Positions 3,955 to 62,895 of a DNA stretch of 64,000 nt are shown piece after piece. The stretch lies in assembly GCA_041664925.1 (NCBI GenBank), contig JBAYJV010000001.1:213438-277437 (forward strand), read 5' to 3'. A program made the position numbers and the translations under genes. The DNA comes from Minisyncoccota bacterium. Its GTDB lineage: Bacteria; Patescibacteriota; Minisyncoccia; JBAYJV01. Numbering within the stretch: the first letter of the stretch is position 1; every line of letters starts with the position of its first letter. The notes under the pieces are model-generated. The model worked only from the letters and a program-made list of their open reading frames with translations. It searched no databases and was not told the DNA's origin.

Positions 3955-3982
3955 AAAAAAAGGCGAGCCTTGCTCGCCTGTA
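3955..3982 (-). terminator. intrinsic terminator (GGCGAGCaaGGCTCGCC + T run) after ORF 3988-4881
   Basis: hairpin followed by T-run on the minus strand. Confidence 0.6.
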
Positions 3983-10852: not shown

Positions 10853-11689
10853 TTACTCTTTCCACTCTCGAATCGCTTTAGCGTAAGTTTCGGGTGTGCC
10901 AATATCAAACCATCTTCCTGATAATAAATATCCGTAAAAATTATTTTCTTGAATTAACTTGGGAAAAATTTCCTTTTCAATGCTGATTGTCTGGGAATTC
11001 ATATAGTCAAAAATTTCGTATTGAAAAACAAAAATACCAGCATTGACTACATAAGACTGAATATTCTTTTTTGCTGGTTTCTCTGAAAATTCTTTTACCC
11101 GCGATCCTTCCAGTTTAACCGTTCCCAACCCCATTGGATCGGATACCGATGAAAGTGCAATTGTTCCCAACGCTTTATTTGAAATATGGAAATCAATTAA
11201 ATCGTCTATATTAACATCGGCAATTTCGTCAATGTACCAGAGTAAAAATGGTTCTTGTTTAATAAACGGCTTAACAGCCAATAAGGCTGGCGCCGTTCCT
11301 TTTTCTTTCTTGTCGTCAATATAAATGATATTAACGCCAAATCTTTCACCGTTTCCAAAGTAGGCTTTTATTTTTTCTCCCAAAGTTCCAACAACGATAT
11401 AAATATTTTTTATATTATAACCTCTGAGATAATTAATCGTGTGTTCCAAGATCGGCTTGCCCTTGATCGGAATAAGCGCTTTAGGAATTTCGTAAGTCAA
11501 AGGTCTCCAGCGCACGCCCTTTCCAGCAGCCAAAATTACCGCCTGATTAATGCTCGGCCTTAAGCTCTTGGCAATCAAAGATTCGATGGCATGAGATCGA
11601 TTGCGGACTTTTTCGCCATCAACCAATCCATCAATTTTGCCAAGCAATTTTTCGTCTAATGTAATTGTAATGCGTGATTTTTTTGTCAT
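10853..11689 (-). CDS. sugar-phosphate nucleotidyltransferase with N-terminal ribbon-helix-helix (CopG-like) domain
   Basis: N-terminal ITLDEKLLGKID...RNRSHAIESLI (RHH), then LAAGKGVRWRPLT...IPKALIP NTP-transferase motif. Confidence 0.6.
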   Translation of the reverse strand: MTKKSRITITLDEKLLGKIDGLVDGEKVRNRSHAIESLIAKSLRPSINQAVILAAGKGVRWRPLTYEIPKALIPIKGKPILEHTINYLRGYNIKNIYIVVGTLGEKIKAYFGNGERFGVNIIYIDDKKEKGTAPALLAVKPFIKQEPFLLWYIDEIADVNIDDLIDFHISNKALGTIALSSVSDPMGLGTVKLEGSRVKEFSEKPAKKNIQSYVVNAGIFVFQYEIFDYMNSQTISIEKEIFPKLIQENNFYGYLLSGRWFDIGTPETYAKAIREWKE

Positions 11690-11796
11690 ACTTTTTCTTA
11701 TCTATATCTTGCCATAATTTAAAAAATATACAAGCGATTTTGTCATTCTGAGAAACTGAAGAATCCCGCGTATCTTGAGTAGTGTTAATTTTACTT

Positions 11797-12249: not shown

Positions 12250-12308
12250 AGAAGGAGCAGAAGAAATCTGCTCCTTTTTTTAATTTATTGAAGTCCGACT
12301 TCGATAAA
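12250..12308 (+). terminator. terminator module: GAAGGAGCagaagaaatcTGCTCCTTTTTTT followed by hairpin TTGAAG-TCCGA-CTTCGAT (direct-repeat copy A)
   Basis: near-identical to 12959-13016. Confidence 0.7.
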
Positions 12309-12475: not shown

Positions 12476-12955
12476 ATGAAACAACCAAGTTCGGTCGAAA
12501 AAAACACTCCAATGGCTTTAATCCGCCAGAACCTGTTTGGATGGCTTGATAAAAAGGATTGGACGACACAAGAGCTAGTCGATTGGCTTACTGGTTACAA
12601 ACTCTTAGAAATCTTAAACACAGGATGCGACGACGAACCATATGGCTTAATCGTAAAAGCGCTTGAAGATGGAGTCGAGAGAAATCGGAAAAGACTCCTC
12701 AAGGATGAATTAGCGAGAAGAATCGCTAAACTCCTTAATGAAGGACCAGATGTTAACGGACCATGCGCGTCTCAGATAAGAAATGATCAATTGCTTTATA
12801 ATTTGCTTTTATTAGCAGCTTGCATAAAACGTTATCGAACTCTCCAAAGACCTCTTTGTGATATGCGACAACGAGGCAAATTAATAAACAGAAATTACTT
12901 AGCCATTAGTCTAAAGAGACTCCTTGATGATGCAATCTCACATCAATACAAGTAG
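12476..12955 (+). CDS. hypothetical 159-aa protein (cassette gene)
   Basis: SD AAAGGAGG; flanked by ~58-nt direct repeats. Confidence 0.5.
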   Translation: MKQPSSVEKNTPMALIRQNLFGWLDKKDWTTQELVDWLTGYKLLEILNTGCDDEPYGLIVKALEDGVERNRKRLLKDELARRIAKLLNEGPDVNGPCASQIRNDQLLYNLLLLAACIKRYRTLQRPLCDMRQRGKLINRNYLAISLKRLLDDAISHQYK

Positions 12956-12958
12956 AAT

Positions 12959-13016
12959 AGAAGGAGCAGAAAGAGTCTGCTCCTTTTTTAATTTATCGAA
13001 GTCCGACTTCGATAAA
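12959..13016 (+). terminator. terminator module, direct-repeat copy B (GAAGGAGCagaaagagtcTGCTCCTTTTTT + ATCGAAG-TCCGA-CTTCGAT)
   Basis: see 12250-12308. Confidence 0.7.
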
Positions 13017-14176: not shown

Positions 14177-16840
14177 TCACTTAACTACAAAGTTTATTAG
14201 TTTATCCTGAACGTAGATCACTTTGACGATTTCCTTATCTCTCGTCCAGCCAATAATTTTTGAAGAAGAAAGCGCTTTTTCTTTTGCCTCTGATTCTGAA
14301 ATACCAATCGGACACTCAATCATTTCTCTGACTTTCCCATTCACCTGAACAACCAAACTAAATACGTCTTTTTTAATTAATTTTTCGTCATACTTCGGCC
14401 AAGGCTCTTCTGAAATTGACCTGAAATTAGAATTTGTTTCGGATTTCGGATTTCGGATTTCGGATTTGAGGAGTTGATATAACTCCTCTGTGATATGAGG
14501 CGCAAATGGTGAAAGGATTATTAAGAATTTTTCAAAAACTTCTTGTGCTAAATCCTTCGCTTTTTCAATTTCATTCAAAAAGATCATCATTTGAGAAACT
14601 GCCGTATTAAACTTCATCTGCTCAATGTCTTCCCCGACTTTCTTAATCGTCTGATTTAATAATCTTTCTAAATCTTTTGATTCCTGACCTTGAATCTTTG
14701 ATCCATGTTTTTCGCTTTTCGCTTTAAGCTTTACGCTTTCTCCTAAGTCCCAAACCCTACTCAAAAATCTATTCACTCCAATAACACTTTTCCCTTCCCA
14801 CGGAATTGCTTGATCAAATGGCCCCATAAACATTTCATAAAGCCTGACTGTGTCAGCTCCATATTCTTTTACGTAATCATCGGGATTAATGACATTGCCT
14901 TTTGACTTTGACATCTTAATTCCGCCCTCGCCCAAAATCATGCCATGAGCGGTTCTTTTTTTATAAGGCTCCGGTCCGCATTCTCTTGGAACTGCTCCAA
15001 TATCATAAAGAAATTTATAAATAAATCTTGAATATAATAAATGCAGTGTTGTATGCTCCATCCCGCCATTGTACCAATCAACCGGAGTCCAATATTTCAT
15101 TTGTTTCGTATTTCGTATTTCGAATTTCGAATTTTCGCTTATAGTATAAGCGATGTAGTACCAATTAGAACCCGCCCAGTTGGGCATGACATCGGTTTCT
15201 CGCCTTGCCTCGCAACCGCATTTTGGACATTTTACCTTGACCCAGTCTTTTGCCTTTGCCAATGGCGAGTCACCATCTTTCGTTGGTATAAAATCTTTAA
15301 TTTCCGGTAATTCAATCGGCAAATCTTTTTCTGGCACCGCAACCCAGCCAGGATTCAGAATTTCTCCTTCGTTGTGTTTCGTATTTCGTATTTCGTATTT
15401 CGTATTTTCCATTAATTTTTTGCACTTCGGGCAAAATATTAATGGAATCGGTTCTCCCCAATATCTTTGTCTTGAGAAAATCCAATCGCGCAAATGGTAA
15501 TTGATTGTTTTATCTCCTAATTTATTTTCCTTTAGCCAAGCGATTATTTTTTTCTGCGCTTCTTTGGTTTCAAGTCCATTCAAAAAACCAGAATTAATAT
15601 TAATGCCATCGCCCTCGTAAGCTTCGCTTTCCGCGAAGTTAGAATTTTGAATTTTGAATTTTGAATTTGTTTCGGATTTCGGATTTCGGATTTCGGATTT
15701 TAAATCATCCGTCGGCTTTACCACAATTTCGATCGGCAAATTATATCGCTTCGCGAATGCGTAATCACGAGTATCGTGTCCCGGTACTGCCATAATTGCC
15801 CCTGTTCCATAATCCATTGAAACATAATCTGCTATAAAAACAGGAATTTCTTTTTTTGTTGCTGGATTAATTGCCTTAATTCCCTTAATCTCAACTCCCG
15901 TTTTTTTCAACCCAAGGTTGACCAGCCTCGGGCTGGCTTTTTTTATATCACTAATATACTTTTCAATTTCTTCATAATTTTCGATTAACGATTCACTATT
16001 AACGATTAACGAATGATCAGGAGCAATCACCAAAAATGTCGCCCCAAAAATCGTATCTGCTCTTGTTGTGAATACCTCCAAATAGTTTTGGTCATTTGGA
16101 TTTAAATTATTAGATATTGTTTCGGATTTCTGATTTCGGATTTCGAATTTAATGCTTGCTCCTTCCGATCTACCAATCCAATTAATTTGCTGATTCTTGA
16201 TTCGATCCAAATAGTCAACATTTTTTAAATCATCGATCAGTCGATCAGCATATTTAGTAATTTTTAGAATCCATTGTTCACGTTCTTTTTTTATAACTTC
16301 GCTTCCGCATCTTTCACAAACTCCACCAACCACCTCCTCATTAGCTAAGCCAATTTTGCAGCTTGTGCACCAATTAATATTTTCTTTCGCTTTATAAGCT
16401 AAGCCATGTTTGAATAATTGGAGGAATATCCACTGGGTCCATTTATAGTATTCCGGATCGGAAGTTGAAAGCACTCGCGACCAATCAAAAGAAAATCCCA
16501 AAGATTTTAATTGCCTTGTGAAAATAGCAATATTTTCTTTGGTAATAATTTTAGGATTAACTTTTCTTTTTATGGCATAATTTTCTGTCGGTAGCCCAAA
16601 AGAATCAAAACCAATGGGATAAAGAACCGAATATCCTTCCATTCGGCGTTTTCGGCAAATAATATCCATCGCGGTATAGCTTCGTGGATGACCAGTATGA
16701 AGCCCATCTCCAGACGGATAAGGAAATTCTACTAAACCATAAAACTTCTTTTTTTCCTTATTTTCTTTAGCGTGAAAAATTCCTGTCTTTTCCCAAATAG
16801 CTTGCCACTTCTTTTCAATTTTTTCCGGATCGTAAGGCAT
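14177..16840 (-). CDS. leuS: leucine--tRNA ligase carrying five in-frame low-complexity insertions
   Basis: HTGHPRSYT (HIGH-like) and KMSKSKGN motifs; CP1 editing domain; start taken at MPYDPEKIEKKWQ. Confidence 0.9.
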   Translation of the reverse strand: MPYDPEKIEKKWQAIWEKTGIFHAKENKEKKKFYGLVEFPYPSGDGLHTGHPRSYTAMDIICRKRRMEGYSVLYPIGFDSFGLPTENYAIKRKVNPKIITKENIAIFTRQLKSLGFSFDWSRVLSTSDPEYYKWTQWIFLQLFKHGLAYKAKENINWCTSCKIGLANEEVVGGVCERCGSEVIKKEREQWILKITKYADRLIDDLKNVDYLDRIKNQQINWIGRSEGASIKFEIRNQKSETISNNLNPNDQNYLEVFTTRADTIFGATFLVIAPDHSLIVNSESLIENYEEIEKYISDIKKASPRLVNLGLKKTGVEIKGIKAINPATKKEIPVFIADYVSMDYGTGAIMAVPGHDTRDYAFAKRYNLPIEIVVKPTDDLKSEIRNPKSETNSKFKIQNSNFAESEAYEGDGININSGFLNGLETKEAQKKIIAWLKENKLGDKTINYHLRDWIFSRQRYWGEPIPLIFCPKCKKLMENTKYEIRNTKHNEGEILNPGWVAVPEKDLPIELPEIKDFIPTKDGDSPLAKAKDWVKVKCPKCGCEARRETDVMPNWAGSNWYYIAYTISENSKFEIRNTKQMKYWTPVDWYNGGMEHTTLHLLYSRFIYKFLYDIGAVPRECGPEPYKKRTAHGMILGEGGIKMSKSKGNVINPDDYVKEYGADTVRLYEMFMGPFDQAIPWEGKSVIGVNRFLSRVWDLGESVKLKAKSEKHGSKIQGQESKDLERLLNQTIKKVGEDIEQMKFNTAVSQMMIFLNEIEKAKDLAQEVFEKFLIILSPFAPHITEELYQLLKSEIRNPKSETNSNFRSISEEPWPKYDEKLIKKDVFSLVVQVNGKVREMIECPIGISESEAKEKALSSSKIIGWTRDKEIVKVIYVQDKLINFVVK
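14436..14467. repeat. heptamer microsatellite (TTTCGGA)n inside leuS, encoding SEIRNPKSETNS
   Basis: direct reading. Confidence 0.8.
15104..15137. repeat. heptamer microsatellite (TTTCGTA/TTTCGAA)n inside leuS, encoding FEIRNTK
   Basis: direct reading. Confidence 0.8.
15376..15408. repeat. heptamer microsatellite (TTTCGTA)4 inside leuS, encoding YEIRNTKHNE
   Basis: direct reading. Confidence 0.8.
15643..15703. repeat. (GAATTTT)3 + (TTTCGGA)4 inside leuS, encoding SEIRNPKSETNSKFKIQNSNF
   Basis: direct reading. Confidence 0.8.
16119..16150. repeat. heptamer microsatellite (TTTCGGA/TTTCTGA)n inside leuS, encoding FEIRNQKSETISNN
   Basis: direct reading. Confidence 0.8.
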
Positions 16841-17070
16841 AATGATTAACTCAAAAATCAAATCTTAAAACTCAAAGCCAAAACCCAAAACTATTAAGCT
16901 ATTTATTTTTTAGATTTAAGTTATGGTTTTAACTTTTGAATTTTAAGCTTTAAGTTTAACTTAATAATATCATAATATAGTACTATATTATCTAAATTTG
17001 CTTAAAAAGAAAAGAGCGCAGCTTTTACTACGCTCTTTATGTCTAATGATTTTTATTTCCTCTTCTAAGA

Positions 17071-17457
17071 TTAGGGTCTTTGAATGAATACTTCGCCGCT
17101 AATACTTTCGCCAGCTCGTTTAACCCATGAAAGAGGAATACCGTGAATGATTGTGCTATCTGTTGGTCTTTGACATGTCGTTGCCTTGGCTTCTCTTCCT
17201 GCGACCAATTCAGCAATCTGGCTAGATAGCATCCAAAGATCCATCAATGGATTTGCATCATCACTCTTCTGTAAAAGCACTTCGTCACCATGACCTTCCA
17301 CTGCGCCAATTACACAACTAGGTGAAATGTCTCTAAGACATAAGCCACTGCTTCGTTCTGTGGTATAAGCAACAACCTTTTCTCTTTTATTAAACCTAAC
17401 TAAATCATCTGGTCTGATAAAATAAAAAGTTCCGCATTTTCCCGATTGATTTTCCAT
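17071..17457 (-). CDS. hypothetical 128-aa protein (G+C-rich cassette gene)
   Basis: SD GAGGAGGAAAG-ATG; terminator hairpin at 17005-17040. Confidence 0.5.
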   Translation of the reverse strand: MENQSGKCGTFYFIRPDDLVRFNKREKVVAYTTERSSGLCLRDISPSCVIGAVEGHGDEVLLQKSDDANPLMDLWMLSSQIAELVAGREAKATTCQRPTDSTIIHGIPLSWVKRAGESISGEVFIQRP

Positions 17458-17536
17458 CTTTCCTCCTCGACTTTTCCTATTTGCTGAGCTTTTGAAGAAC
17501 TGTCAATATCTTAAATCAAAATTTATTGTGTGTCAA
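17458..17536 (-). promoter_or_regulatory. promoter TTGACA-17-TAAGAT with short leader (AGTTCTTCAAAAGCTCAGC...GTCGAGGAGG)
   Basis: about 90% identical over ~90 nt to 18085-18164. Confidence 0.6.
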
Positions 17537-17589
17537 GTCTAAAAGAAAAAAAAGGCGTAGCTCTTGCTACGCCCATCATGTTTTTGTGA

Positions 17590-18084
17590 CTATGTTTCAA
17601 TTTCAGCGCTTGCCTCTACGCCTTCACGCTGCGGCATCGCGCCTACAAAACGAGCAAGTCTCTCCAAGTATTCACGACAATCGACATGCGCAGATTTGCT
17701 TTCCGTCCCTTCGCTTTTGAATAATATAGTAGTACCATCGTCTTGATGCCTATAATCAACACGAGCACAACCCTCAGAATATTCAAAAATTACAATGCGA
17801 ACACCATTGTCAAGACAAAACAACGCGTAATCTTCGGCGACTACCCAACGAGATCTTTGACTACAAGTACCTGTAACAGACGGCTTCTTCTGAACTTCAA
17901 AGTACTGATTCTGTGCTCCATGTCTCTCTCTAGTATAGCCAACAATCCAATCAAAAGGAATGTCGCGCATACATACATGCCCCTTCTCTTCGTCTACCTG
18001 ACCAAGTGCTACTTCGCCTTTTAGCAAGTAGTCTACCTGATGAGGTAAAAAGTAAAGTCTCTCGATTGTCTGTGCGCTTCCCAT
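17590..18084 (-). CDS. hypothetical 164-aa protein (G+C-rich cassette gene, apparently unrelated to 17071-17457)
   Basis: same promoter-leader as the neighbouring gene; terminator hairpin 17549-17580. Confidence 0.5.
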   Translation of the reverse strand: MGSAQTIERLYFLPHQVDYLLKGEVALGQVDEEKGHVCMRDIPFDWIVGYTRERHGAQNQYFEVQKKPSVTGTCSQRSRWVVAEDYALFCLDNGVRIVIFEYSEGCARVDYRHQDDGTTILFKSEGTESKSAHVDCREYLERLARFVGAMPQREGVEASAEIET

Positions 18085-18164
18085 CTTTCCTCCTCGACTT
18101 TTCCTATGCGCTGAGCTTTTGAAGAACTATCAATATCCTAAGTTATAATTATTCAAATGTCAAG
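18085..18164 (-). promoter_or_regulatory. promoter TTGACA-17-TAGGAT with short leader, duplicate of 17458-17536
   Basis: direct reading. Confidence 0.6.
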
Positions 18165-18262
18165 CTAAAAACAAACAAATCGTATCAAATACGATTTATA
18201 GTTCTGATTAATTCATTCCTAATTCTTGATTCCTAATTCCAACTCGTTAACCCATTAACACG

Positions 18263-31667: not shown

Positions 31668-31847
31668 AGATATACAAAGTAAAATTTCGTGGACTGGGAG
31701 GGACTTGTCCCAGAAACTTCTATCCCGATAATTCGGGATTAGAATTTCGGGATCCCGTCATTGTAATTCCGGTAAACCGGAATAACAAGTGACTGGGAAA
31801 CCCTCTACCTCCCCGGCATGCCGGGGTGTTCTACCATCCTTAATATA
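31668..31847 (-). promoter_or_regulatory. GC-rich multi-hairpin element between tRNA-Ala and the downstream gene (CCCCGGCATGCCGGGG, TTCCGGTTTACCGGAA, CCCGAATTATCGGG, CTGGGAcaagtcccTCCCAG; contains AGAAGTTTCTGGGAC)
   Basis: hairpins belong to the same families used in the leader modules. Confidence 0.4.
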
Positions 31848-37700: not shown

Positions 37701-40163
37701 TTAGAGCACGCTCGGTTGGAGATGATGATAGGGAGGGTGATTTTTATATCTTTTTATCGCCATCCTGATAATCTCTTCCAAAAAATCTCCATAATCCAAC
37801 CCAATTACTTTTGCTGAATTAGGCACAGAGTCGCCAATATTAATCGAAGGGTTGGGATTTAATTCCAAAACATAGGGGTTATTATTTTTATCTACTCTCA
37901 ATTCGACTCGTCCATAATCATGACAATCTAAAATATTGTAGGTATCAAGAGCAATTTCAGTAATAAGTTTTGAAAGTTTCTTGCTAATATTTTTTGGTGG
38001 TCGTTGAATAGTGATTCCTTTGTCATAAGCATCATCTTCTTCCCATTTCGCTTCAAAAGGATAAATGTGCCAATATCCAGGAGGCATTTTATCAAACATA
38101 GACCTTGTTAGTGGCAAGACTCTTAGATCATCTTCTTCACTTCCTAAAATTGAAACATCATACTCATCTCCATCAATATATTCTTCTATAATCGCTGGTC
38201 GGCCAATTTCCATAATAATTTTTTCAAGTTGTTTTTCTAGTCTTTTTTTATTAGTTACCACCGAATCATTGGTAATGCCGATAGAATTGTCTGTGTTAGC
38301 TGGTTTTACTATCAATGGATACCTTAGATCCTCTCTGATATCGTCCTCTAAACTATAAATATAATCCCATTTCGGTGTCGGCATATTGTGGAATGCCAGC
38401 AACTTTTTAACCCTAATCTTGTCAATGCATAATCCAAGAGTAAATGAACTTGATCCCGTATAAGGAATTTGAAGCGCGTCTAAAATTGCCGCGGCATGGG
38501 GTTCAAGCAGACTTGATTCATTGATTCTTTCGCAGACATTAAAGATAAGATCGACATCGCTCTTTCTTAAATCTTCGAGTACGCGCGAAAGATTATTAAA
38601 ATCAAAGAAAGTCACTCGATATCCCCGTTCTATCAGGGTTTTTTCAATATTCTTTCCAACTGACATTAAATCTTTCTCAACTGCCCCAGCATTTTCATCA
38701 TAAAAATTACATGCAATACCAATATGGAGATTTCTCTGATTTTTTATCGACATTCTTCTAATCTTTTCAATTTTTCCGCTCCTAATAAGAATGTCTTGAT
38801 TGATAGCTGAAGGTGAAAAATGATTTTTACGCAATGTTTTTCCAATCGATGAAGCCGATTGAAAACGAGCCACTTCATAATTAACGCAATCCAAGGCCTC
38901 TTTTAGATTGTCTTGAGCATCTAAAGGATTATCGCCAGAAACCACAATCCATCCCAAATATTCGTACCCTTCAGGTGGCACCAAGACGGGATCGCCAATT
39001 TTTTTAAAAAATTCGATTTCTTCTACAAATGGTTTCTTCTTTATTTTCTCATCTATGTCAAATTGAACAATAATGCCAGAGTAATTGCTTAAAAAATCAT
39101 GTGACGCTAAATACATGTAAGGATTTTCTGGCTTATTGATTTTCGGAAAATATATTCCTAGGGCAATTTTGGCAGCTCCTTCGATAAAATCAATACGCCA
39201 AGCTTTTTTTATACTGTCGTAAATTTCATCTCCTCCCATTCTTAAATTAACCTCGATTGGCACAGGACCTTCTTTTGTTGATTTAGCTTCAAGATGAATA
39301 CAGCCATCTTGTATTCCCAGTTTTTCCAAAATTTCATCGGCCATAACTATAAGAGCCTCTTTATTTTTTTCTGGCAAACCCGATGGCGTTAAACGTCCCG
39401 TTTCGACAAAAAATGGTTCATTGGTTTTATTATTATCAGAAATAGAATGAAACTTAACTCTGCCATTTTGAATTAAAATATCGATATCAACCTCATCCCC
39501 GTCAATGTATTCTTCTATCATTATGTCTGTTCCGTCATTAAGCGCAGATTCCACCTCAGTATTAATGCTTTTTTTAATATATTGATAAGTTGATGTTAAT
39601 TCTTCTTCATTGTCGACTCTTACAACAAAGGCGCTGCTTGCTCCAAATGTTGGTTTAATCACTAAGGGAAATCCTAATTCCTTTGAAATTTTCTTTAAAT
39701 CCTCTGCTGATTTGACCATAATATGCCTTGGTGTCGGTAGGTTATTTTCTTGACAAAATTCACGAAACAGATATTTATTTCTAACCCTCTTTGAAATATT
39801 AAGAGGGATGCCTATAAAATTAAATTTATCTGTTATTTTTGAAGTCAAAAGAACATCGTCTTCCCAAAAAGTAATTGCTCCGTCAATTTTTATATTGGGA
39901 TTATTTGCCATAAAATCTTTTATGGCTTGGATTGATTCTGTATGATTGGTGTTATCTGCCAAAATCCAGTGATCAACATAAGGTTGCGCCCAGTTTTTTT
40001 CTTTATTGAGCACCACTATTTGAAGTCCCATTTTCTTAAGCTTCTGAATTACAAAACGCTTCTTAATAGAACCAGTATTTACCAAAAGAATTGTTTTTCC
40101 TAAAAGAGAATTTACGCCATTGTTTGGATTTAAAATTTTATCGTTATGATGACTATCTTTCAT
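37701..40163 (-). CDS. tandem ATP-grasp ligase (N-terminal ATP-grasp + C-terminal D-Ala-D-Ala-ligase-like ATP-grasp)
   Basis: FPLVIKPTFGASS and YPLIVKPANTDNS phosphate loops; DYGRVELRVDKNNNPYVLELNPNPSI Ddl-like C-terminus. Confidence 0.65.
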   Translation of the reverse strand: MKDSHHNDKILNPNNGVNSLLGKTILLVNTGSIKKRFVIQKLKKMGLQIVVLNKEKNWAQPYVDHWILADNTNHTESIQAIKDFMANNPNIKIDGAITFWEDDVLLTSKITDKFNFIGIPLNISKRVRNKYLFREFCQENNLPTPRHIMVKSAEDLKKISKELGFPLVIKPTFGASSAFVVRVDNEEELTSTYQYIKKSINTEVESALNDGTDIMIEEYIDGDEVDIDILIQNGRVKFHSISDNNKTNEPFFVETGRLTPSGLPEKNKEALIVMADEILEKLGIQDGCIHLEAKSTKEGPVPIEVNLRMGGDEIYDSIKKAWRIDFIEGAAKIALGIYFPKINKPENPYMYLASHDFLSNYSGIIVQFDIDEKIKKKPFVEEIEFFKKIGDPVLVPPEGYEYLGWIVVSGDNPLDAQDNLKEALDCVNYEVARFQSASSIGKTLRKNHFSPSAINQDILIRSGKIEKIRRMSIKNQRNLHIGIACNFYDENAGAVEKDLMSVGKNIEKTLIERGYRVTFFDFNNLSRVLEDLRKSDVDLIFNVCERINESSLLEPHAAAILDALQIPYTGSSSFTLGLCIDKIRVKKLLAFHNMPTPKWDYIYSLEDDIREDLRYPLIVKPANTDNSIGITNDSVVTNKKRLEKQLEKIIMEIGRPAIIEEYIDGDEYDVSILGSEEDDLRVLPLTRSMFDKMPPGYWHIYPFEAKWEEDDAYDKGITIQRPPKNISKKLSKLITEIALDTYNILDCHDYGRVELRVDKNNNPYVLELNPNPSINIGDSVPNSAKVIGLDYGDFLEEIIRMAIKRYKNHPPYHHLQPSVL

Positions 40164-40541
40164 AGTGATATTTTGAATAAAAAAAGACCCGCTTTCTTTT
40201 TTGTTCTAAAGAATGATTGCGAGTTTAATTGAACCAAGGTCTTGCCAGGAGGCTCGTCTCCTTCGTCAACGCTAGTCGATAATGAATCAGAAATTGGTTT
40301 CTTAAATAAATTTTTCATTCGTTATTTTTTAATTCCTATAAAGATAATATCTCCTTCGTCGATTTTATTCCTATCAGAATAATAATCCCTTTCCTCTCAT
40401 TGTCAATATGTGAATAATTTCTCTTTTATTGGCCAAAAACGGTTGATTTGTATAGCTATCAAGTGCTTCAGAAATTCTCTTGCTAAGCTGTTTTTATATG
40501 ATAACCTGAAATTAGAATAGTACTTTTTAAAAGGAGGAAAT

Positions 40542-40874
40542 ATGTGCGATAGAACTTTGGCCGATGTTCTTGTTTTTGACATCGGAATAATGGGACGGCA
40601 ATCACCTAACGGATCTGTTGAATTTTGCAATGCTTTCGTAAGAAAACATCTTGGGGGAATTACTGGAGAGATTCCCAAAATAGCTTGTCCTATATGCAAA
40701 CAAGGTGTCTTAATTGAAACTGAAAGAGGTGATGTTTTTTCTGAACCAACTCACCTTGGAGAAGGTATTTCTCAAGAAAAAGCATCAATTCCTATCGGAA
40801 GAAGTATTCGCCTCAGGTGTTCCGAATGTCAAAAAGTTTTCTCAGGAAAACGCATTTTCCTCACGGTCGCTTAG
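40542..40874 (+). CDS. hypothetical Cys-rich 110-aa protein
   Basis: CPICKQG...CSECQ pairs; SD AAAGGAGG. Confidence 0.5.
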   Translation: MCDRTLADVLVFDIGIMGRQSPNGSVEFCNAFVRKHLGGITGEIPKIACPICKQGVLIETERGDVFSEPTHLGEGISQEKASIPIGRSIRLRCSECQKVFSGKRIFLTVA

Positions 40875-40878
40875 ATAG

Positions 40879-40932
40879 CAAACCCCGGCAAGCCGGGGTT
40901 TTTCTTGACAATGCTAAAAACAATGATAGAAT
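40879..40932 (+). promoter_or_regulatory. fused terminator-promoter module: AAACCCCGGCAAGCCGGGGTTTTT then TTGACA-16-TAGAAT
   Basis: direct reading; sister copy at 41571-41627. Confidence 0.65.
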
Positions 40933-40956
40933 GAAAATGACCTAAAGGAGGTCACA

Positions 40957-41562
40957 TTGAACAAGAGAATGAATAGTTTCGGAGTTTTGATCGTTGCGGT
41001 GTTGGTTTTCGTTTCTTTACTTTCCGGAGTAGCGTTGGGAGCAGATCAAGGTATTGTTCTTTTATATAACACTCCCAGGACTGTGATGATTCCTTATCGA
41101 GTTGATGGTGTCGATATTCGATATTCGCTCGATGACAATATTGGAGTAAAACTGCAAGTGTATTTTCAGATTCCCTTTGGATCAGAAATCTATCTGGCAA
41201 AAAAATATGTTCCAGACTATTTCTTGGGAATGAATTATCAAGTAGAATTACCTCAACTTCCTAGTAATAAAAAATTTATAGGAGCGCCTTGTTCAAAATT
41301 GGTCTTTGGAATTCAAACCTATACATGGTGCGATTCGTCAGGCTCTTGGTTTCAATTACTTTCGTCGCTTCCTCCTATGCTTAGTGAACCATCAAAGGAC
41401 ATTCCTCACGCACCCATTAGTATTGATGGCAGCACCAATAAGCTCGTCTTCATTAATGTTCCCGATGGTCGCTGGTTGATGATTACTCTGCCCACCGGAG
41501 AAAGCCGCGAAGGCTATTGTAAGGCTTATTTATACAAACCAGTTCTTCCTATAAATCCTTAG
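40957..41562 (+). CDS. secreted hypothetical protein (signal peptide, probable TTG start 5 nt after AAAGGAGG)
   Basis: MNKRMNSFGVLIVAVLVFVSLLSGVALGA signal peptide. Confidence 0.5.
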   Translation: MNKRMNSFGVLIVAVLVFVSLLSGVALGADQGIVLLYNTPRTVMIPYRVDGVDIRYSLDDNIGVKLQVYFQIPFGSEIYLAKKYVPDYFLGMNYQVELPQLPSNKKFIGAPCSKLVFGIQTYTWCDSSGSWFQLLSSLPPMLSEPSKDIPHAPISIDGSTNKLVFINVPDGRWLMITLPTGESREGYCKAYLYKPVLPINP

Positions 41563-41570
41563 AGAAATCC

Positions 41571-41627
41571 AAGCCCCGGCAAGATGTCGGGGTTTTTTTT
41601 GACAATACACAACTAAAGATATAAGAT
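41571..41627 (+). promoter_or_regulatory. fused terminator-promoter module: CCCCGGCAAGATGTCGGGGTTTTTTT then TTGACA-17-TAAGAT
   Basis: direct reading. Confidence 0.65.
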
Positions 41628-41657
41628 ATTTATAGTTCCATATAGCCAAGGAGGAAA

Positions 41658-42074
41658 ATGGCCATAAACGAAAAACAGTGGCAAAAAGAGACAAGGAAGT
41701 TTCATAGAGATGCCTTGAAAGTTATTGATTCGGCTCGAGACAAAGTTATTGTTTATAATCCCGGTCTTGTTAGCGATGTCTTTCAAGACGGACAGATCGC
41801 AGAAGCGATAAAAAGAGCTAAGGCTAGAGATATCAAAATCACCATTCTCGTTCAGAGAAGTAATTCTGCAAATATTGAAGCATTCTTGGCACAATTTGGT
41901 GAAGATGTAGTTTTCGTAGAAGAAGATTTGGATAGGCATGCCTATGTGATATCCGATATTGGATATGTCAAATTCTTAAAAAGAGCCACATGTGTTGAAT
42001 CAATCTACATTCAAGAAGGCGATGTTGGTTCTATTATCAAAACCATTACTGAAGAACTTAGAAGAGCTAACTAA
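41658..42074 (+). CDS. hypothetical 138-aa protein
   Basis: SD CAAGGAGG. Confidence 0.5.
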   Translation: MAINEKQWQKETRKFHRDALKVIDSARDKVIVYNPGLVSDVFQDGQIAEAIKRAKARDIKITILVQRSNSANIEAFLAQFGEDVVFVEEDLDRHAYVISDIGYVKFLKRATCVESIYIQEGDVGSIIKTITEELRRAN

Positions 42075-42098
42075 AGTAGATAGAATACAAACCCCGAC

Positions 42099-42130
42099 AG
42101 ATATGTCGGGGTCTTTTTTTTATTATAAAA
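42099..42130 (+). terminator. terminator AAACCCCGACAGATATGTCGGGGTCTTTTTTTT
   Basis: direct reading. Confidence 0.7.
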
Positions 42131-42300
42131 CAAAAAATCGCCCCCATTAGCCTGAGGCGAAGAAGACCGAAAGACAGAGCTTTCGGCGAAACATTCCCCG
42201 AGGAGTAATCCAGCCTTACCTAGGAGTAGATAAAACCACATTATCCGTATTCTAAGGAAATGCCCCACCCCGACAAAAATCGGGGGTTCTCGCGCCTACA
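42131..42300. other. G+C-richer non-coding stretch with two hairpins (CCGAAAGacagagCTTTCGG; CCCCGAcaaaaaTCGGGG); possible sRNA or decayed cassette
   Basis: no convincing ORF on either strand. Confidence 0.3.
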
Positions 42301-42532
42301 GACTAATAAGGGCGAAACGAAAAAACCTGAACCCTCCATAAGTTCATTATATTCGCTCCTATTCAGTTTATATACCTAGTATAGCAGAAAAAAGAAAAAA
42401 GTCAATAGTTTCGACCTCAGCATGAGTAGTTTTGAGTTATTTAGAGAAAATTTGACATCTATTTTATAATGCTTTATGATATTGATAGTACACAAATTTC
42501 GCCTTTTTAAAGGAGAGAAAAAGGAGAGAAAC

Positions 42533-42808
42533 ATGGACGATATCCAAAAAAGAGACGTTAGGACAATATTAGATGCATCTACTGAGGATGCGAAGTATTT
42601 CTATGAAAACCTCGAATCATTAAGGCAGCAATATCCTGACAAGTATGTGGCTATTCACGACGGAGAAGTTATCGCCTCAGGCAAGAATTATTCGAAACTA
42701 TTACAAAGATTGCGTACTCAATATGGACAAAGGGCTGTCTCGTCTTTCTTTATAAACTTCGTAGATCTTCACCCTGTTTCGTGGATTCTTTCTGCAATGT
42801 CTGCTTAG
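42533..42808 (+). CDS. hypothetical 91-aa protein
   Basis: promoter TTGACA-17-TATGAT; SD AAAAGGAG; terminator 42822-42862. Confidence 0.5.
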   Translation: MDDIQKRDVRTILDASTEDAKYFYENLESLRQQYPDKYVAIHDGEVIASGKNYSKLLQRLRTQYGQRAVSSFFINFVDLHPVSWILSAMSA

Positions 42809-42989
42809 TCCTCTGTTTAGGGAATGTCAAAAAAACATTCCCTCTTTTTTTAATATATGAAAAATTATCTAGAGAATATGGATAAAATATGCTTGAAAAT
42901 GCTGAATGCTTTTGACTTTACCGATTTTTTTGGTAAAATTCATTTATTATAAACTTTAAATTTTTAATTTTAAACTTTTAACTTGAAAC

Positions 42990-44198: not shown

Positions 44199-44231
44199 TA
44201 AAAAATAAAATAAATCTATTAAATTTTGACC

Positions 44232-44882
44232 ATGACTACTATTCTTTCCTATATAGTTAATCAAGGTGTCTCCGAACAAGTTTTGTCATATATCTTGTTG
44301 GCACCGCTCGTAGCGACCTTGATTGTTTTTTTAAGGCAGGTAATCGGATTAAAAAGCTTAGGCGTCTATCATCCTCTTCTTTTGGCTTTTGCCTTCGCTA
44401 GCGCTGGATTAAAAGAAGGGCTGTTTTTTTTCCTGTTAATTGTCCTTCTTGCTAATGCTATAACATATGTAGTTAAAAAGTTTCCCCTTCTTTACCTTCC
44501 GAGACTGACAATCGTTGTGACAGTCACCACTCTAGCTTTAATTTTAGTTATATCAATTATTCGTCTTTCGGATTACAGTTTAGCGCTAAGTGGTTACTTT
44601 CCTATTATCATCATCCTTGCACTAAGCGATAAGTTAGTCACCGCTCAAATGAAAAGAAATATAAAACCCGCATTGATTTTAACTGGCAGCACCCTTGCAG
44701 TAGCTCTTTTGGGATATTTTATTCTTAATATTGTTTGGTTACAAAACATTGTTTTAAATTATCCTTTAATTTTTCTTCTGGTTATAGTCGTGATAAATAT
44801 TTTTCTCGGACGTTTTCATGGTCTTCGTTTAAATGAGCTCTGGCGTTTTCGTCATCTCTTAAAATTACCTCCAAAGAATTAA
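44232..44882 (+). CDS. 7-TM membrane protein partnered with the RimK-like ligase (7TM 'inactive-transglutaminase-fused'-type family)
   Basis: about 7 hydrophobic helices; stop overlaps the next start (TAATG). Confidence 0.45.
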   Translation: MTTILSYIVNQGVSEQVLSYILLAPLVATLIVFLRQVIGLKSLGVYHPLLLAFAFASAGLKEGLFFFLLIVLLANAITYVVKKFPLLYLPRLTIVVTVTTLALILVISIIRLSDYSLALSGYFPIIIILALSDKLVTAQMKRNIKPALILTGSTLAVALLGYFILNIVWLQNIVLNYPLIFLLVIVVINIFLGRFHGLRLNELWRFRHLLKLPPKN

Positions 44883-46180
44883 TGTTCAATACCCTTAAAA
44901 ACTATCACGGCATTTTGGGACTTAATGCTCGAAACTTAGACTATGTTATCAAAAAACATGGTCAACGTCTTGATGTTGCCAATAATAAATTGTTGACAAA
45001 AAAAATTCTTCAAGGCGCTGGTTTGCCGATGCCAGAAACATATTTTGTTATTCGCAATAAAAAAGATTTTAATAAATTTAATTGGGACCTACCTAAATCG
45101 TTCGTTATCAAACCAAGTCGCAGCTTAGGCGGCGAAGGCGTGTTGATTGTCTATGGCAAGAAAAAAAATATTCCTACATGGATTAAAGCAGGACAACGAT
45201 TAATAGACTTAGAAGAAATCAAACACCATATTTATAATATTCTTGAAGGTAATTTCAGCCCTAAGGAAAAAGAAGATAGGGCTATTTTTGAAGAACGCGT
45301 TAAGTTACATCCCGCTTTTAAACCGTATACATTTAAAGGAGGCATTCCTGACGTTAGAGTTATTGTCTATCAAAAGATTCCTATAATGGCTCAACTGAGA
45401 TTGCCCACAGAAGAATCAGAAGGACGAAGCAATTTACATCTTGGAGGTATTGGAGTAGGCATTGATCTAAAAACTGGCATTACTACAACCTCTATCCTCC
45501 ATGATCATTTTATAGATAAAATTCCGGGCACAAGACACATTTTGTCTGGCATTCAAATTCCTTATTGGAAAGATGTTTTGAGAATTGCCGCTCTTGCTCA
45601 AAAACATGCTGGCATCGACCTTCTTGGTATTGATATCGCCATAGATAGAGAAAAAGGTCCGATGATTTTTGAAATAAATTCAAGGCCAGGCATTGCCATT
45701 CAAATGGCAAATCAATCTCCGTTAAGAGAAAGATTGGAAAGAATTGAAGGACTTAAGATCAAGTCAGCCAATCGGGGAACAAAAATTGCTCAAGAACTTT
45801 TTGGCGGAGAAGTTGAGGAAGAACTTGAAGAGATTAGTGGACGAAAAGTTATTGGTTTGTTTGAATTTATCGATATTATTGGTCCAAATAATAAAAAACT
45901 CAGACTGACTGCCAAGATTGATACTGGCGCCTATCGAACTTCTGTCGACAAAGATGTAATAGATAAACTTGGCTTGAAGGAAAGTAAAAAAAAGATTAAA
46001 TTTGTTTCATCTCTCGGAGGAGAGGAAAGATCCCTTGTTGATTTGGCTTTTTCTCTTGCGGGGCAAAGCATAGAAACAGAAGCTTCAATTGCTAATCGAT
46101 CAAATTTAAAATATAGCATAATTATTGGCAGACGCGATTTAAATCTTTTTCTGATTGACCCATTAAAGAAGATTAGTTAA
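44882..46180 (+). CDS. alpha-L-glutamate-ligase-like (RimK-related) ATP-grasp fused to C-terminal retropepsin-like DTGA aspartic protease
   Basis: FVIKPSRSLGGEGV ATP-grasp loop; C-terminal AKIDTGAYRTSV and IIIGRRDL. Confidence 0.65.
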   Translation: MFNTLKNYHGILGLNARNLDYVIKKHGQRLDVANNKLLTKKILQGAGLPMPETYFVIRNKKDFNKFNWDLPKSFVIKPSRSLGGEGVLIVYGKKKNIPTWIKAGQRLIDLEEIKHHIYNILEGNFSPKEKEDRAIFEERVKLHPAFKPYTFKGGIPDVRVIVYQKIPIMAQLRLPTEESEGRSNLHLGGIGVGIDLKTGITTTSILHDHFIDKIPGTRHILSGIQIPYWKDVLRIAALAQKHAGIDLLGIDIAIDREKGPMIFEINSRPGIAIQMANQSPLRERLERIEGLKIKSANRGTKIAQELFGGEVEEELEEISGRKVIGLFEFIDIIGPNNKKLRLTAKIDTGAYRTSVDKDVIDKLGLKESKKKIKFVSSLGGEERSLVDLAFSLAGQSIETEASIANRSNLKYSIIIGRRDLNLFLIDPLKKIS

Positions 46181-49369: not shown

Positions 49370-49397
49370 TTGACAACATTTTTGTTTATCCTATAAT
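49370..49397 (+). promoter_or_regulatory. promoter TTGACA-16-TATAAT driving the ncRNA
   Basis: consensus hexamers. Confidence 0.65.
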
Positions 49398-49404
49398 TGT
49401 TTTT

Positions 49405-49640
49405 ACTGGGGGCGGGCGTCGCAGATGGTTCGGTTGTTGGTGTAACTTGTGGTTACAGACGCATAGTTGCAGACGCAGACTCGGATCTTGTGAGAGTAGG
49501 TAAGTAGCTTTCAAGTCTCCATCAATAGACGGCGTTCTCGGGCTGCGCGCCTCCCCCTTCTTCATTCTAAAAGTTCTTTGAATCAAATTTCGTTCATAAG
49601 CGATACTCCCGAGAGAAGCATAGGCTTCTCTCTTTTTTTG
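49405..49640 (+). ncRNA. candidate structured small RNA (~150-nt core 49408-49557 closed by 5' GGGGGCGGGCGTCGCAG / 3' CTGCGCGCCTCCCCC; possibly 6S-like)
   Basis: own consensus promoter; long closing helix; no ORF; terminator 49607-49640. Confidence 0.45.
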
Positions 49641-49709
49641 TTGCTTTTCGGGGAAATAGTTGACAAATAAATATATAGTTGTAGAATGACAATATCTAAG
49701 GAGGTTTCT

Positions 49710-50036
49710 ATGGCAAACATGTCATTAGTAGGACATGAGAATGTTAGGGTTGAAGTTGTTGGCATTAACAATCGAAAAGGTGAAATCAATATCGTTATTT
49801 CTTATACATTAAAACAATTGCTGAGCAGCGAAACAGAATCACTGGTTATTCCATCAGAAAAACAAGCTCTTATAAAAACATTAATGGGTTTGACTTCAAT
49901 AGAACTTGATTCTCTCCGTGTTGCATTAATATCGTTACGAGGCGTTATGCACGATAACGATAAAAATCTTAGTTTTTCAATTCTTCGAACTATTGAATTT
50001 GTTCGTAACTGGAATCCGGAAAAAGAAAATGACTAA
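49710..50036 (+). CDS. hypothetical 109-aa protein (start MANMSLVG after AAGGAGG)
   Basis: promoter TTGACA-16-TAGAAT at 49660-49687; flanked by ~50-nt direct repeats. Confidence 0.5.
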   Translation: MANMSLVGHENVRVEVVGINNRKGEINIVISYTLKQLLSSETESLVIPSEKQALIKTLMGLTSIELDSLRVALISLRGVMHDNDKNLSFSILRTIEFVRNWNPEKEND

Positions 50037-50046
50037 TAGATCAGTT

Positions 50047-50098
50047 CTCCCGAGAGAAGCATAGGCTTCTCTCTTTTTTGTTGATTTTTGGAGAAAAT
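50047..50098 (+). terminator. terminator CTCCCGAGAGAAGCATAGGCTTCTCTCTTTTTT; direct-repeat copy of 49606-49658
   Basis: ~50 nt near-identical. Confidence 0.75.
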
Positions 50099-62250: not shown

Positions 62251-62293
62251 AAAATAATTATTTATCAAAAAACCGCGTCAAATGCGGTTTTTT

Positions 62294-62532
62294 GTTTGAC
62301 AACAGGTATTAATTATGATAAATAGATACTAGTCCTATAAATCAGTTCTTTTAAAAATCCTTCGACTTCGCTCAGGACAAGCTCCTTCGACTTCGCTCAG
62401 GACAAGCTCCTTCGACTTCGCTCAGGACAAGCTCCTTCGACCCTTCAATTAAATTCAGGGCAGGCTTCGCTCAGGATGTAATTTTTTCTAAACCTCACAT
62501 CCGTTCGGCAAGAAAAACTAACAGGAGGAAAT
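62294..62532 (+). promoter_or_regulatory. promoter TTGACA-17-TAAATA and long leader of the same family, expanded by a tandem triplication
   Basis: AGTTCTTTTAAAAATCCTTCGACTTCGCTCAGGAC..., GTAATTTTTTCTAAACCTCAC, AAGAAAAACTAACAGGAGG. Confidence 0.55.
62359..62440 (+). repeat. 25-nt unit CCTTCGACTTCGCTCAGGACAAGCT x3 plus a partial 4th copy inside the leader
   Basis: perfect tandem copies. Confidence 0.9.
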
Positions 62533-62895
62533 ATGGCAAATCGGAAAATAGAAATCACGAAAAGCATAAAAAATTTTCTAGGATCAGTCCTAGTAACTTT
62601 TAAGATGATGGAGTTAATTATGTTTTATTGCCTTTTCTACATAGATTGTCCTATTTATGTGGATCATGAGAATGCTACTGTTTATGCAAAGACTGAAAAA
62701 ATGACAAAGAAAAAAAGAATCAGACGATCTGTGTGGGCATACATTATGTCTACGTTCCTATTTCTTATAGCGCTTGCTATTATGTCAACTCCTAGTGAAC
62801 TCTTTGTTGTCGGATGTATTTTAGGAATCATGTCTATCGGTTTAAATTCTATAGCATACTTCGACTTGACTAAGGTCACATCTATAAAAGCGTAG
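62533..62895 (+). CDS. hypothetical membrane protein (120 aa)
   Basis: SD CAGGAGG. Confidence 0.5.
   Translation: MANRKIEITKSIKNFLGSVLVTFKMMELIMFYCLFYIDCPIYVDHENATVYAKTEKMTKKKRIRRSVWAYIMSTFLFLIALAIMSTPSELFVVGCILGIMSIGLNSIAYFDLTKVTSIKA

Follow-up and report, generated by a model that had tools for sequence, protein, structure and literature searches.

A probable strain-variable gene-slot locus, with terminator repeats as candidate recombination joints and a conserved structured RNA gene, in a Candidate Phyla Radiation chromosome

How do small orphan genes come to stand in a row between housekeeping genes of a bacterium of the Candidate Phyla Radiation (CPR, or Patescibacteria), and what part do the similar hairpins between them play? 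The question is raised by the interval 40542-42862 of a 64,000-nucleotide stretch of contig JBAYJV010000001.1, which we analyzed as a whole and call the window (G+C content 35.7%). In NCBI its source is labelled a 'Candidatus Paceibacterota bacterium' metagenome-assembled genome, with locus tags WC242_02010-02020, and the contig measures 433 kb. The variable interval is bounded on the left by an 820-aa double ATP-grasp gene on the minus strand (37701-40163) and on the right by yebC-ruvC on the plus strand (42990 onward), and it holds four plus-strand open reading frames (ORFs), each preceded by a GGAGG-type Shine-Dalgarno (SD) sequence. An earlier note on this DNA had described the interval as an array of four orphan cassettes separated by fused terminator-promoter repeats. 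Our results suggest that it is probably a strain-variable gene-slot locus, composed of self-contained units like the 'morons' of phages at a site like the minimal mobile elements of Neisseria, with terminator repeats as recombination joints. The interval is organized around a conserved minus-strand structured RNA gene of ~187 nt. CPR bacteria have tiny genomes with many genes that lack an annotated function, and how they gain genes is poorly understood; the locus offers a concrete picture that can be tested. Should this picture apply to the genome at large, repeated terminators would mark the flexible gene pool in a simple way and would be a lead to genes of host or phage interaction.

We compared the interval with contigs of related lineages, here designated by L and a number. 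The flanking genes, checked in Pfam, were ATP-grasp, yebC, ruvC and a gene for a penicillin-binding protein, and a YebC-based genome scan with the universal KWATIKHK pattern returned at least one close relative. ATP-grasp and YebC share 94-97% identity among the close lineages (the window, L083 and L088) and 67-69% in L003. The near-identical contigs L001 and L002 have the same order as the window, ORF1-ORF2-ORF3-RNA-ORF4. L088 and L083 carry ORF1-ORF2-RNA and neither ORF3 nor ORF4, with the ORF2 terminator directly abutting the 3' end of the RNA. L091 shows ORF2, a terminator with the promoter-like site P3, a homologue of ORF3, a terminator and the RNA. In L092 and L094, ORF2 is followed by P3 as in the window, but another gene occupies the position of ORF3, which we call slot 3. 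This gene is a faint paralogue of the Zn-ribbon ORF1 (25% identity, E=3e-4, same Cys pattern). L003/L095 has a small ORF, the RNA and yebC, and none of the four ORFs. Finally, ~110 nt of unrelated sequence replace ORF4 with its promoter and terminator in L083, L088 and L094, and ORF4 is missing also from L003. Overall, five distinct contents occur at one syntenic site between ATP-grasp and yebC.

The earlier note had proposed a search for cassette gain or loss in relatives and had taken full conservation of the array as evidence against its own idea. Full conservation is not what we found, since close relatives with flanks at 94-97% identity carry none, two or three of the ORFs, or another slot-3 gene. 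One way to account for such differences without any role of the repeats is vertical descent with differential loss in an ordinary compact genome, where terminators are alike since a genome of 36% G+C needs G+C-rich stems, and promoters adjoin them since intergenic space is short. The content of slot 3 is in conflict with the ORF2 tree, which speaks against this explanation: ORF2 is 94% identical between L088 and L092, yet slot 3 is missing in the former and filled in the latter, and ORF3 accompanies both types of ORF2. Because slot content varies, and does so against the ORF2 tree, these comparisons indicate that the array is not conserved and that gain, loss or exchange of cassettes at the locus is real.

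Further evidence comes from the boundaries of the variable segments. A 38-nt direct repeat, whose left and right copies hold terminators T2 and T3 (41563-41600 and 42082-42119; Table 1), brackets P3 and ORF3, and copies of a terminator do therefore enclose a cassette, which supports the earlier interpretation in this respect. T3 of the window is orthologous to the one terminator that follows ORF2 in L083 (match at 39 of 40 positions). L091 has identical copies of T2 and T3, down to a loop that no other lineage shows. A second, independent example of a cassette flanked by terminators is found at 49.6 kb. Here, a 52-nt direct repeat composed of a terminator and ~20 nt (49606-49657 and 50047-50098) surrounds a promoter and a 116-aa orphan (49686-50036), while the counterpart in L088 lacks the ORF and has a single copy of the terminator. 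The two copies in the window have a common loop base that differs in L088. At 12.3 kb, a ~59-nt direct repeat (12250-12308 and 12959-13016), made of the terminator AAGGAGCAGA..TCTGCTCCTT and a second hairpin, GAAGTCCGACTTC, brackets a 159-aa orphan with no Pfam match (12476-12955), which sits within another run of small orphans at 11.8-14 kb. The compact-genome explanation fits poorly with these data. The likeness exceeds the stems, as the 38-, 52- and ~59-nt repeats take in the flanks; indel boundaries coincide with repeats in two independent comparisons; and paired copies share loop features, either found nowhere else (L091) or different in the relative (49.6 kb).

Several observations speak for ordinary architecture all the same. 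G+C-rich stems of the CCCCGG type occur also at the unrelated terminators 31811 and 63268. A hairpin internal to the RNA of L003, CCCCGGCAAGCCGGGG, has the same sequence as T1 of the window, which shows that such a 16-mer recurs easily. A TTGAC(A/T) lies within 0-20 nt of roughly 10 of the window's ~27 terminator-like hairpins, and the two terminator-promoter units have only ~19 nt in common. Taking both sides together, we regard descent with differential loss and inert repeats as unlikely.

In the reading that we favour, each unit is self-contained, with a predicted promoter of the sigma-70 type (ORF2-4), a strong SD and, as predicted terminator, a hairpin with a T-run. The hairpins would insulate each gene, and a -35 that starts in or right after the T-run would let one joint end a gene and start the next. 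Being short direct repeats, the terminators may act as the joints where cassettes are added, deleted or exchanged. Such changes could come about by recombination, either homologous or illegitimate, probably with DNA of related strains and through conserved flanks as in the minimal mobile elements of Neisseria. Slot 3 retains one promoter and holds either ORF3 or the ORF1-like Zn-ribbon gene. A bolder version, to which we give an outside chance, is that a dedicated mechanism uses terminators as att-like insertion sites for orphan-gene cassettes with promoters of their own, places them right behind the hairpin, duplicates the terminator and so builds arrays whose joints end one gene and start another, with slot 3, 49.6 kb and 12.3 kb as its footprints. 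Our literature search on terminator-flanked orphan insertions returned nothing relevant.

A number of points weigh against this reading. Whether a cassette was inserted with duplication of a terminator or lost by deletion between older repeats, the resulting pattern is the same, and the ORF4 indel has no flanking repeat. Given the stems at 31811 and 63268, part of the hairpin similarity could be due to convergence. The predicted promoters and terminators were called by their fit to a consensus, and the total yield of the promoter scan (46 sites) is no enrichment relative to shuffled sequences (40 expected). Four of the relatives are represented by short contigs only. On the first point, the derived loop bases that paired copies have in common are more in keeping with a recent duplication or with gene conversion.

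Table 1. Positions in the window of the features of the interval and its left border
Feature	Position	Strand	Basis and remarks
Small ORF, 52 aa	40160..40318	-	ORF list; upstream of ATP-grasp, 4-nt overlap with ATP-grasp start; conserved left border
Promoter-like TTGACA-16-TATTAT, small ORF/ATP-grasp operon	40379..40406	-	Scan, 11/12 matches; diverges from ORF1
ORF1, 110 aa, putative Zn-ribbon with CPxC...CxxC, orphan	40542..40874	+	Pfam Zn-ribbon matches sub-threshold only
T1, hairpin CCCCGG-CAAG-CCGGGG then TTTTTC	40883..40904	+	Read from sequence
P2, promoter-like TTGACA-16-TGaTAGAAT for ORF2	40905..40932	+	Scan, 11/12 matches with TG; begins directly after T1 run
ORF2, 201 aa, TTG start, predicted Sec signal peptide, beta-rich, orphan	40957..41562	+	
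38-nt direct repeat, left copy, holds T2	41563..41600	+	71% identical to 42082-42119
T2, hairpin 41574-41592, T-run 41593-41600	41574..41600	+	Terminator scan
P3, promoter-like TTGACA-17-TAAGAT of slot 3	41599..41627	+	Scan, 10/12 matches
ORF3, 138 aa, predicted single-domain phospholipase D (PLD) fold, without conserved HxK catalytic motif	41658..42074	+	
38-nt direct repeat, right copy, holds T3	42082..42119		
T3, hairpin	42092..42111	both	Terminator-like on both strands in scan; sits between convergent ORF3 and RNA gene
Unclassified structured RNA gene, ~187 nt	42132..42318	-	Predicted 27-bp closing stem, four-way junction with three hairpins, then U-run
Promoter-like TTGACT-16-TGcTATACT of RNA gene	42378..42405	-	Scan
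P4, promoter-like TTGACA-17-TATGAT for ORF4	42452..42480	+	Scan, 11/12 matches
ORF4, 91 aa, DUF5678 protein	42533..42808	+	Pfam PF18929; at this locus in window lineage only
T4, hairpin AGGGAATG..CATTCCCT (42819-42843) and T-run	42819..42851	+	Terminator scan; not CCCCG type

The joints themselves proved to be real features. Hairpins of the form CCCCGRC..YCGGGG end ORF1, ORF2 and ORF3 (40883-40898, 41574-41592 and 42092-42111). The motif is found at 6 places in the 64 kb, four of them within these 2.3 kb, with 0.01 matches expected by chance; since most copies are palindromic, the 6 places give 10 matches over both strands. The claim that every ORF ends in such a hairpin held for ORF1-3. It failed for ORF4, where the stem is AGGGAATG..CATTCCCT, and the fourth copy of the motif (CCCCGAC..TCGGGG, 42268-42285) is a helix inside the minus-strand RNA gene and not a terminator. 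The counterpart of T4 in L094 is degenerate and unable to form a hairpin. T2, T3 and T4 were recovered by the scan as G+C-rich hairpins with a T-run just past a stop codon, as predicted intrinsic terminators should be. In the two cases pointed out earlier, the T-run does lead into TTGACA: T1 abuts P2, and T2 overlaps P3 by 2 nt, its last two T (41599-41600) doubling as the opening TT of the -35 hexamer (41599-41604). The best plus-strand promoter-like sites of a 12-kb stretch lie exactly upstream of ORF2, ORF4 and ORF3. In L083, L092 and L093 the orthologues of T1 have stems of different sequence in which pairing is kept, and the stretch from the P2 -35 to the SD is 88-96% identical in 5 lineages, compared with 59-76% at 4-fold degenerate sites of the flanking genes. 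Because of this kept pairing and this conservation, the joints are under selection as predicted regulatory elements.

The fused unit is a different matter. Its junction is real and kept in relatives, but the two units are alike only in the hairpin, the T-run and TTGACAAT (19 nt, 95%), and beyond CGGGGTTTTTnTTGACAAT and the stem the P2 and P3 units are not similar. The sequence CGGGGTTTTTNTTGACAAT occurs exactly twice in the 64 kb, and with up to 3 mismatches at 3 sites, compared with 0.09 expected. The ~55-nt unit, for which a genome-wide search had been suggested, thus forms no repeat family in the window and reduces to two copies. Near-fusions are found elsewhere in the window, with gaps between terminator and TTGAC(A/T) of 7-11 nt at 3979, 17573, 36755, 49323 and 53187 and of ~20 nt at 49611, and a third overlap of terminator and -35 lies at 62273-62300 (GCGGTTTTTTGTTTGACA). 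Judged by these sites, the terminator/-35 fusion is the extreme of a window-wide habit rather than a dedicated 55-nt repeat unit. The -35 to SD promoter parts belong to the slot and not to a common repeat. Taken together, the earlier observation is partly confirmed and its interpretation partly supported: orphan self-contained units stand, while the array of four is interrupted between ORF3 and ORF4 by an RNA gene that has a promoter of its own, and ORF4, which ends in another kind of terminator, is a separate insertion.

Are the four ORFs genes at all? Their lengths of 110, 201, 138 and 91 aa, their positions and their SD sequences agree with the earlier description; the G+C content of the interval is 38.7% rather than the ~42% estimated by eye, with 36.9-40.2% in the ORFs. 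Open frames arising by chance in noncoding spacer might be suspected, as ORF1-3 have no Pfam family above threshold and very few homologues. However, their frames, lengths and start positions are kept at dS (synonymous divergence) of 0.4-1.4, which is like that of the flanks, with ratios of nonsynonymous to synonymous divergence (dN/dS) well below 1. These are 0.16-0.54 for ORF1 (5 lineages), 0.11-0.23 for ORF2 and 0.39 for ORF3. In addition, ORF4 matches DUF5678 and ORF3 has a predicted PLD-like fold. The chance of mere spacer frames is accordingly negligible and the idea refuted; by these measures the ORFs are true coding genes under purifying selection. They evolve rapidly. For ATP-grasp, yebC and ruvC, dN/dS is 0.02-0.05 among the same close lineages and up to 0.13 relative to L003. 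Among close lineages, dN is 0.08-0.31 for the small ORFs compared with 0.013-0.031 for these three genes, and the rate of protein change in the small ORFs is ~3-15 times that of ATP-grasp, YebC and RuvC. At the protein level the small ORFs are 55-84% identical, or 94% in the case of ORF2 between L088 and L092, and the flanks 94-97%.

Such fast divergence could also mean that the cassettes are old paralogues, formed by tandem duplication of promoter-gene-terminator units whose coding parts diverged quickly, and were never acquired. A gene like that in slot 3 of L092 and L094, with its faint paralogy to ORF1, is what this would produce. A comparable case is found at 17071-18179 on the minus strand, where two adjacent orphans of 164 and 128 aa share 102 nt of promoter, 5' untranslated region (UTR) and SD at 81% identity and their proteins 29% identity over 48 aa; here the regulatory module was retained for longer than the coding sequence once duplication had occurred. 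However, length, features and predicted fold show no relationship of ORF2 (secreted, beta-rich) or ORF3 (PLD fold) to ORF1 or to one another, P2 and P3 are alike only in TTGACAAT, and one promoter with two unrelated slot-3 genes is left unexplained. Tandem duplication with fast divergence accounts for the ORF1/slot-3 paralogue and not for ORF2 or ORF3, and we consider it distinctly improbable as an explanation of the whole locus.

Homologues of the ORFs were found only in a narrow clade. Among 5.8 billion clusters, we found 2 non-self homologues for ORF1, 5 for ORF2 and 1 for ORF3, the last with 72-74% identity. None of the four ORFs was detected in 27 metagenome loci with ATP-grasp at 41-70% identity, where distant loci also lack synteny; the same 27 loci served for the RNA searches described below. 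The TTG start that the earlier note proposed for ORF2 is supported by 4 relatives, which carry GTG in its place, 5 nt downstream of the SD. The N-terminus resembles a signal peptide, as the note had also suggested, and combines a K/R-rich stretch with a hydrophobic one and ALG|A. The AlphaFold2 model of ORF2 is unusable (pLDDT confidence score 37), with a helix at N-terminal residues 7-26. Pfam, PHROG and PADLOC returned no match to ORF2, and a profile search of 1.84 billion representatives gave two full-length remote matches and no informative relatives.

ORF3 matches Pfam PLDc_2 below the curated cut-off (20.1 bits compared with 27, E=6e-4). Its AlphaFold2 model, built from a 2-sequence alignment, has a pLDDT of 67.5, and Foldseek pairs it with TrmBL2, Zucchini and NucT (E~2e-5, template modelling score 0.6-0.7). 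It thus resembles single-domain PLD proteins (Nuc/NucT, Zucchini and the C-terminal domain of TrmB/TrmBL2) in its length of ~140-150 aa and its predicted fold. It differs from them in its sub-threshold PLDc_2 match and in the catalytic motif HxK(x)4D, which is absent or not conserved: the window has DRHAYVISD where L091 has RRLACVTSD, with His replaced by Leu and no Lys. When all ORFs were run against PADLOC and PHROGs, the only matches were weak PLD-type ones (DrmC/MkoC) to ORF3, with no significant PHROG match. ORF4 exceeds the gathering score of DUF5678 (PF18929; 45.9 bits compared with a cut-off of 23.2, E=5e-12), and a literature search on this family returned nothing relevant. We prefer its 91-aa start because the ATG of a longer, 110-aa reading sits within the -10 hexamer of P4. 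Given the fast evolution, the secretion and the strain variability, our guess is that the products (a secreted protein, a Zn ribbon, a pseudo-PLD and a DUF5678 protein) are accessory factors for interaction with host, phage or environment.

A row of short ORFs, each followed by a hairpin that is conserved more in structure than in sequence, with hairpin copies flanking cassettes and with strain-variable content, also recalls integrons. The hairpins would then be attC-like sites and the ORFs mobile cassettes captured in succession by a recombinase encoded elsewhere. Integrons have an adjacent integrase of the tyrosine-recombinase type (IntI) together with attI and the promoter Pc. Integron attC sites are imperfect palindromes of 57-141 nt with R''/L''-L'/R' boxes (RYYYAAC / GTTRRRY), and integron cassettes are mostly promoterless and expressed from Pc. 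Here, the hairpins are intrinsic terminators of 16-20 nt with T-runs, no GTTRRRY core is found at the joints, and neither attI nor attC boxes are present. Promoter-like sites conserved in relatives precede ORF2, ORF3 and ORF4, and ORF4 has another terminator and no repeat. No integrase, recombinase or transposase domain occurs in the called genes within ~7 kb on each side in L001 and ~10 kb on each side in L083 and L088. Because integrase and attC features are missing and the cassettes bear promoters, an integron-like system is disfavoured, and we hold it to be very unlikely.

Closer parallels are found in phages and in Neisseria. Neisseria minimal mobile elements were reportedly described by Saunders and Snyder in 2002. 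Our locus shares with them the presence of different gene sets at a single syntenic position with conserved flanks, and departs from them in its CPR host, in short internal terminator repeats that mark the joints, and in the conserved RNA gene at the same site. The conflict between slot 3 and the ORF2 tree is indirect evidence that spread by transformation and homologous recombination in the flanks may occur here too. The duplication of a terminator is, to our knowledge, not part of the definition of a moron. As used in PMC1797815, the Neisseria elements are alternative sets of three genes or fewer at a syntenic site, with exchange thought to proceed by homologous recombination in the flanks. 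Morons were first described in the phages HK97 and HK022 (review PMC3594210). Like morons, the units of our locus are single genes with their own promoter and terminator between genes that are adjacent in relatives, are independent transcription units by prediction, would serve accessory functions and show a G+C offset (37-40% compared with 35.7%). ORF2-4 each have a predicted promoter and terminator, ORF3 and ORF4 are absent from L083 and L088, and all four ORFs are absent from L003. The slot units may thus resemble morons functionally, in a chromosome. Unlike morons, they lie in a bacterial chromosome between housekeeping genes, have no PHROG matches, neighbour an RNA without viral-contig match, and in slot 3 are enclosed by duplicate copies of the terminator that lies upstream. 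The terminators themselves have the G+C-rich stem and T-run right after stop codons that are typical of intrinsic terminators, including bidirectional ones, as T3 scores on both strands. They are unusual in that the T-run of T1 and T2 abuts or supplies part of the next -35 and in that copies coincide with indel boundaries. What is new here is the presence of units of the moron or minimal-mobile-element kind in a CPR chromosome, together with an unclassified conserved RNA.

This RNA is the most conserved element of the interval, above any neighbouring protein gene. It is 97-99% identical in 4 other lineages, compared with 59-76% at 4-fold degenerate sites of the flanking genes. Its minimum free energy is -92.4 kcal/mol (z = -8.5). 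The inferred transcript start near 42371 leaves a conserved leader of ~52 nt (42319-42371), and leader and promoter are 92-98% identical in relatives. The RNA is found also in L003/L095, the most distant syntenic relative (150 bits). When its covariance model was run against the 27 metagenome loci, only the L003/L095 lineage was recovered, with the same outcome from nhmmer. Covariation is thin, with 2 compensatory pairs and 98% of cells paired compared with 43-55% for slid controls, and its support is weak because more distant relatives lack synteny. As the structure was derived from the same sequences, the case for the RNA is one of stability and conservation.

No Rfam family matched the RNA at gathering scores and none relevant at E<=10 (6S, signal recognition particle RNA, RNase P, transfer-messenger RNA (tmRNA), riboswitches). 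Rfam over the whole window and the two RNA candidates, at gathering and permissive thresholds, returned tRNAs only; ARAGORN detected no tmRNA, a viral-contig scan with the RNA gave no match, and a literature search on 6S RNA in Patescibacteria found nothing relevant. In L003, the RNA lies directly upstream of the promoter of the small ORF and ATP-grasp, while in the window group the two are 2 kb apart, with opposite-strand genes between them. We rejected a riboswitch or leader, because 2 kb from the ATP-grasp operon the RNA is still 97-99% identical; since separation costs no conservation, it is most likely a stand-alone RNA. We likewise rejected a short peptide ORF in the leader of the RNA, as its frame is not kept in L003. 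With no Rfam match and more conservation than the neighbouring protein genes, the RNA is a candidate new RNA class for the phylum.

A possible second unclassified RNA gene lies on the plus strand at 49396-49600, where a perfect TTGACA-17-TATAAT is followed by ~200 nt of G+C-rich, ORF-less sequence with ends that pair (GGGGGCGGGCG/CGCGCCUCCCCC) and then by a terminator. The element is kept in L088 with changes, has a fold z of only -2.1 and has no Rfam match. Just upstream of yebC, L088 also carries a hairpin-rich insertion of ~140 nt (11590-11735), which is absent from the window, L083 and L094.

On the left border, translated matches to the 52-aa small ORF show 87.5% identity in L088 and 75% in L083, and a weaker counterpart in L003 was read by eye. 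The promoter-like site that diverges from ORF1 is kept in the alignment with L088 and L083. The conserved neighbourhood (44226-46180 and 37701-40163 in the window; gene list of L001) includes genes for double ATP-grasp, Acetyltransf_6, 7TM_transglut and ATPgrasp_ST/RimK-like proteins, which looks like a peptide-ligase or peptide-modification set. Given the ATP-grasp and the downstream Acetyltransf_6 genes, we speculate that the 52-aa small ORF encodes a substrate or precursor peptide.

Repeats of other kinds were also observed. A 25-nt tandem repeat (~3.3 copies, 62273-62535) lies in a 5' UTR before an orphan, and its downstream part, CTTCGCTCAGGAyGTAAkTTTTTCTAA...AAAAACTAACrGAGG, is also the 5' UTR insertion of the slot-3 gene of L094 (470-590). 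By this match, the 5' UTR module at 62.4 kb is common to unrelated orphans. Within leuS (14177-16861, minus strand), 5 copies of a 46-nt (ATTTCGG)n element at 14422-16150 are in frame and give peptide insertions like 'EIRNPKSETNS'.

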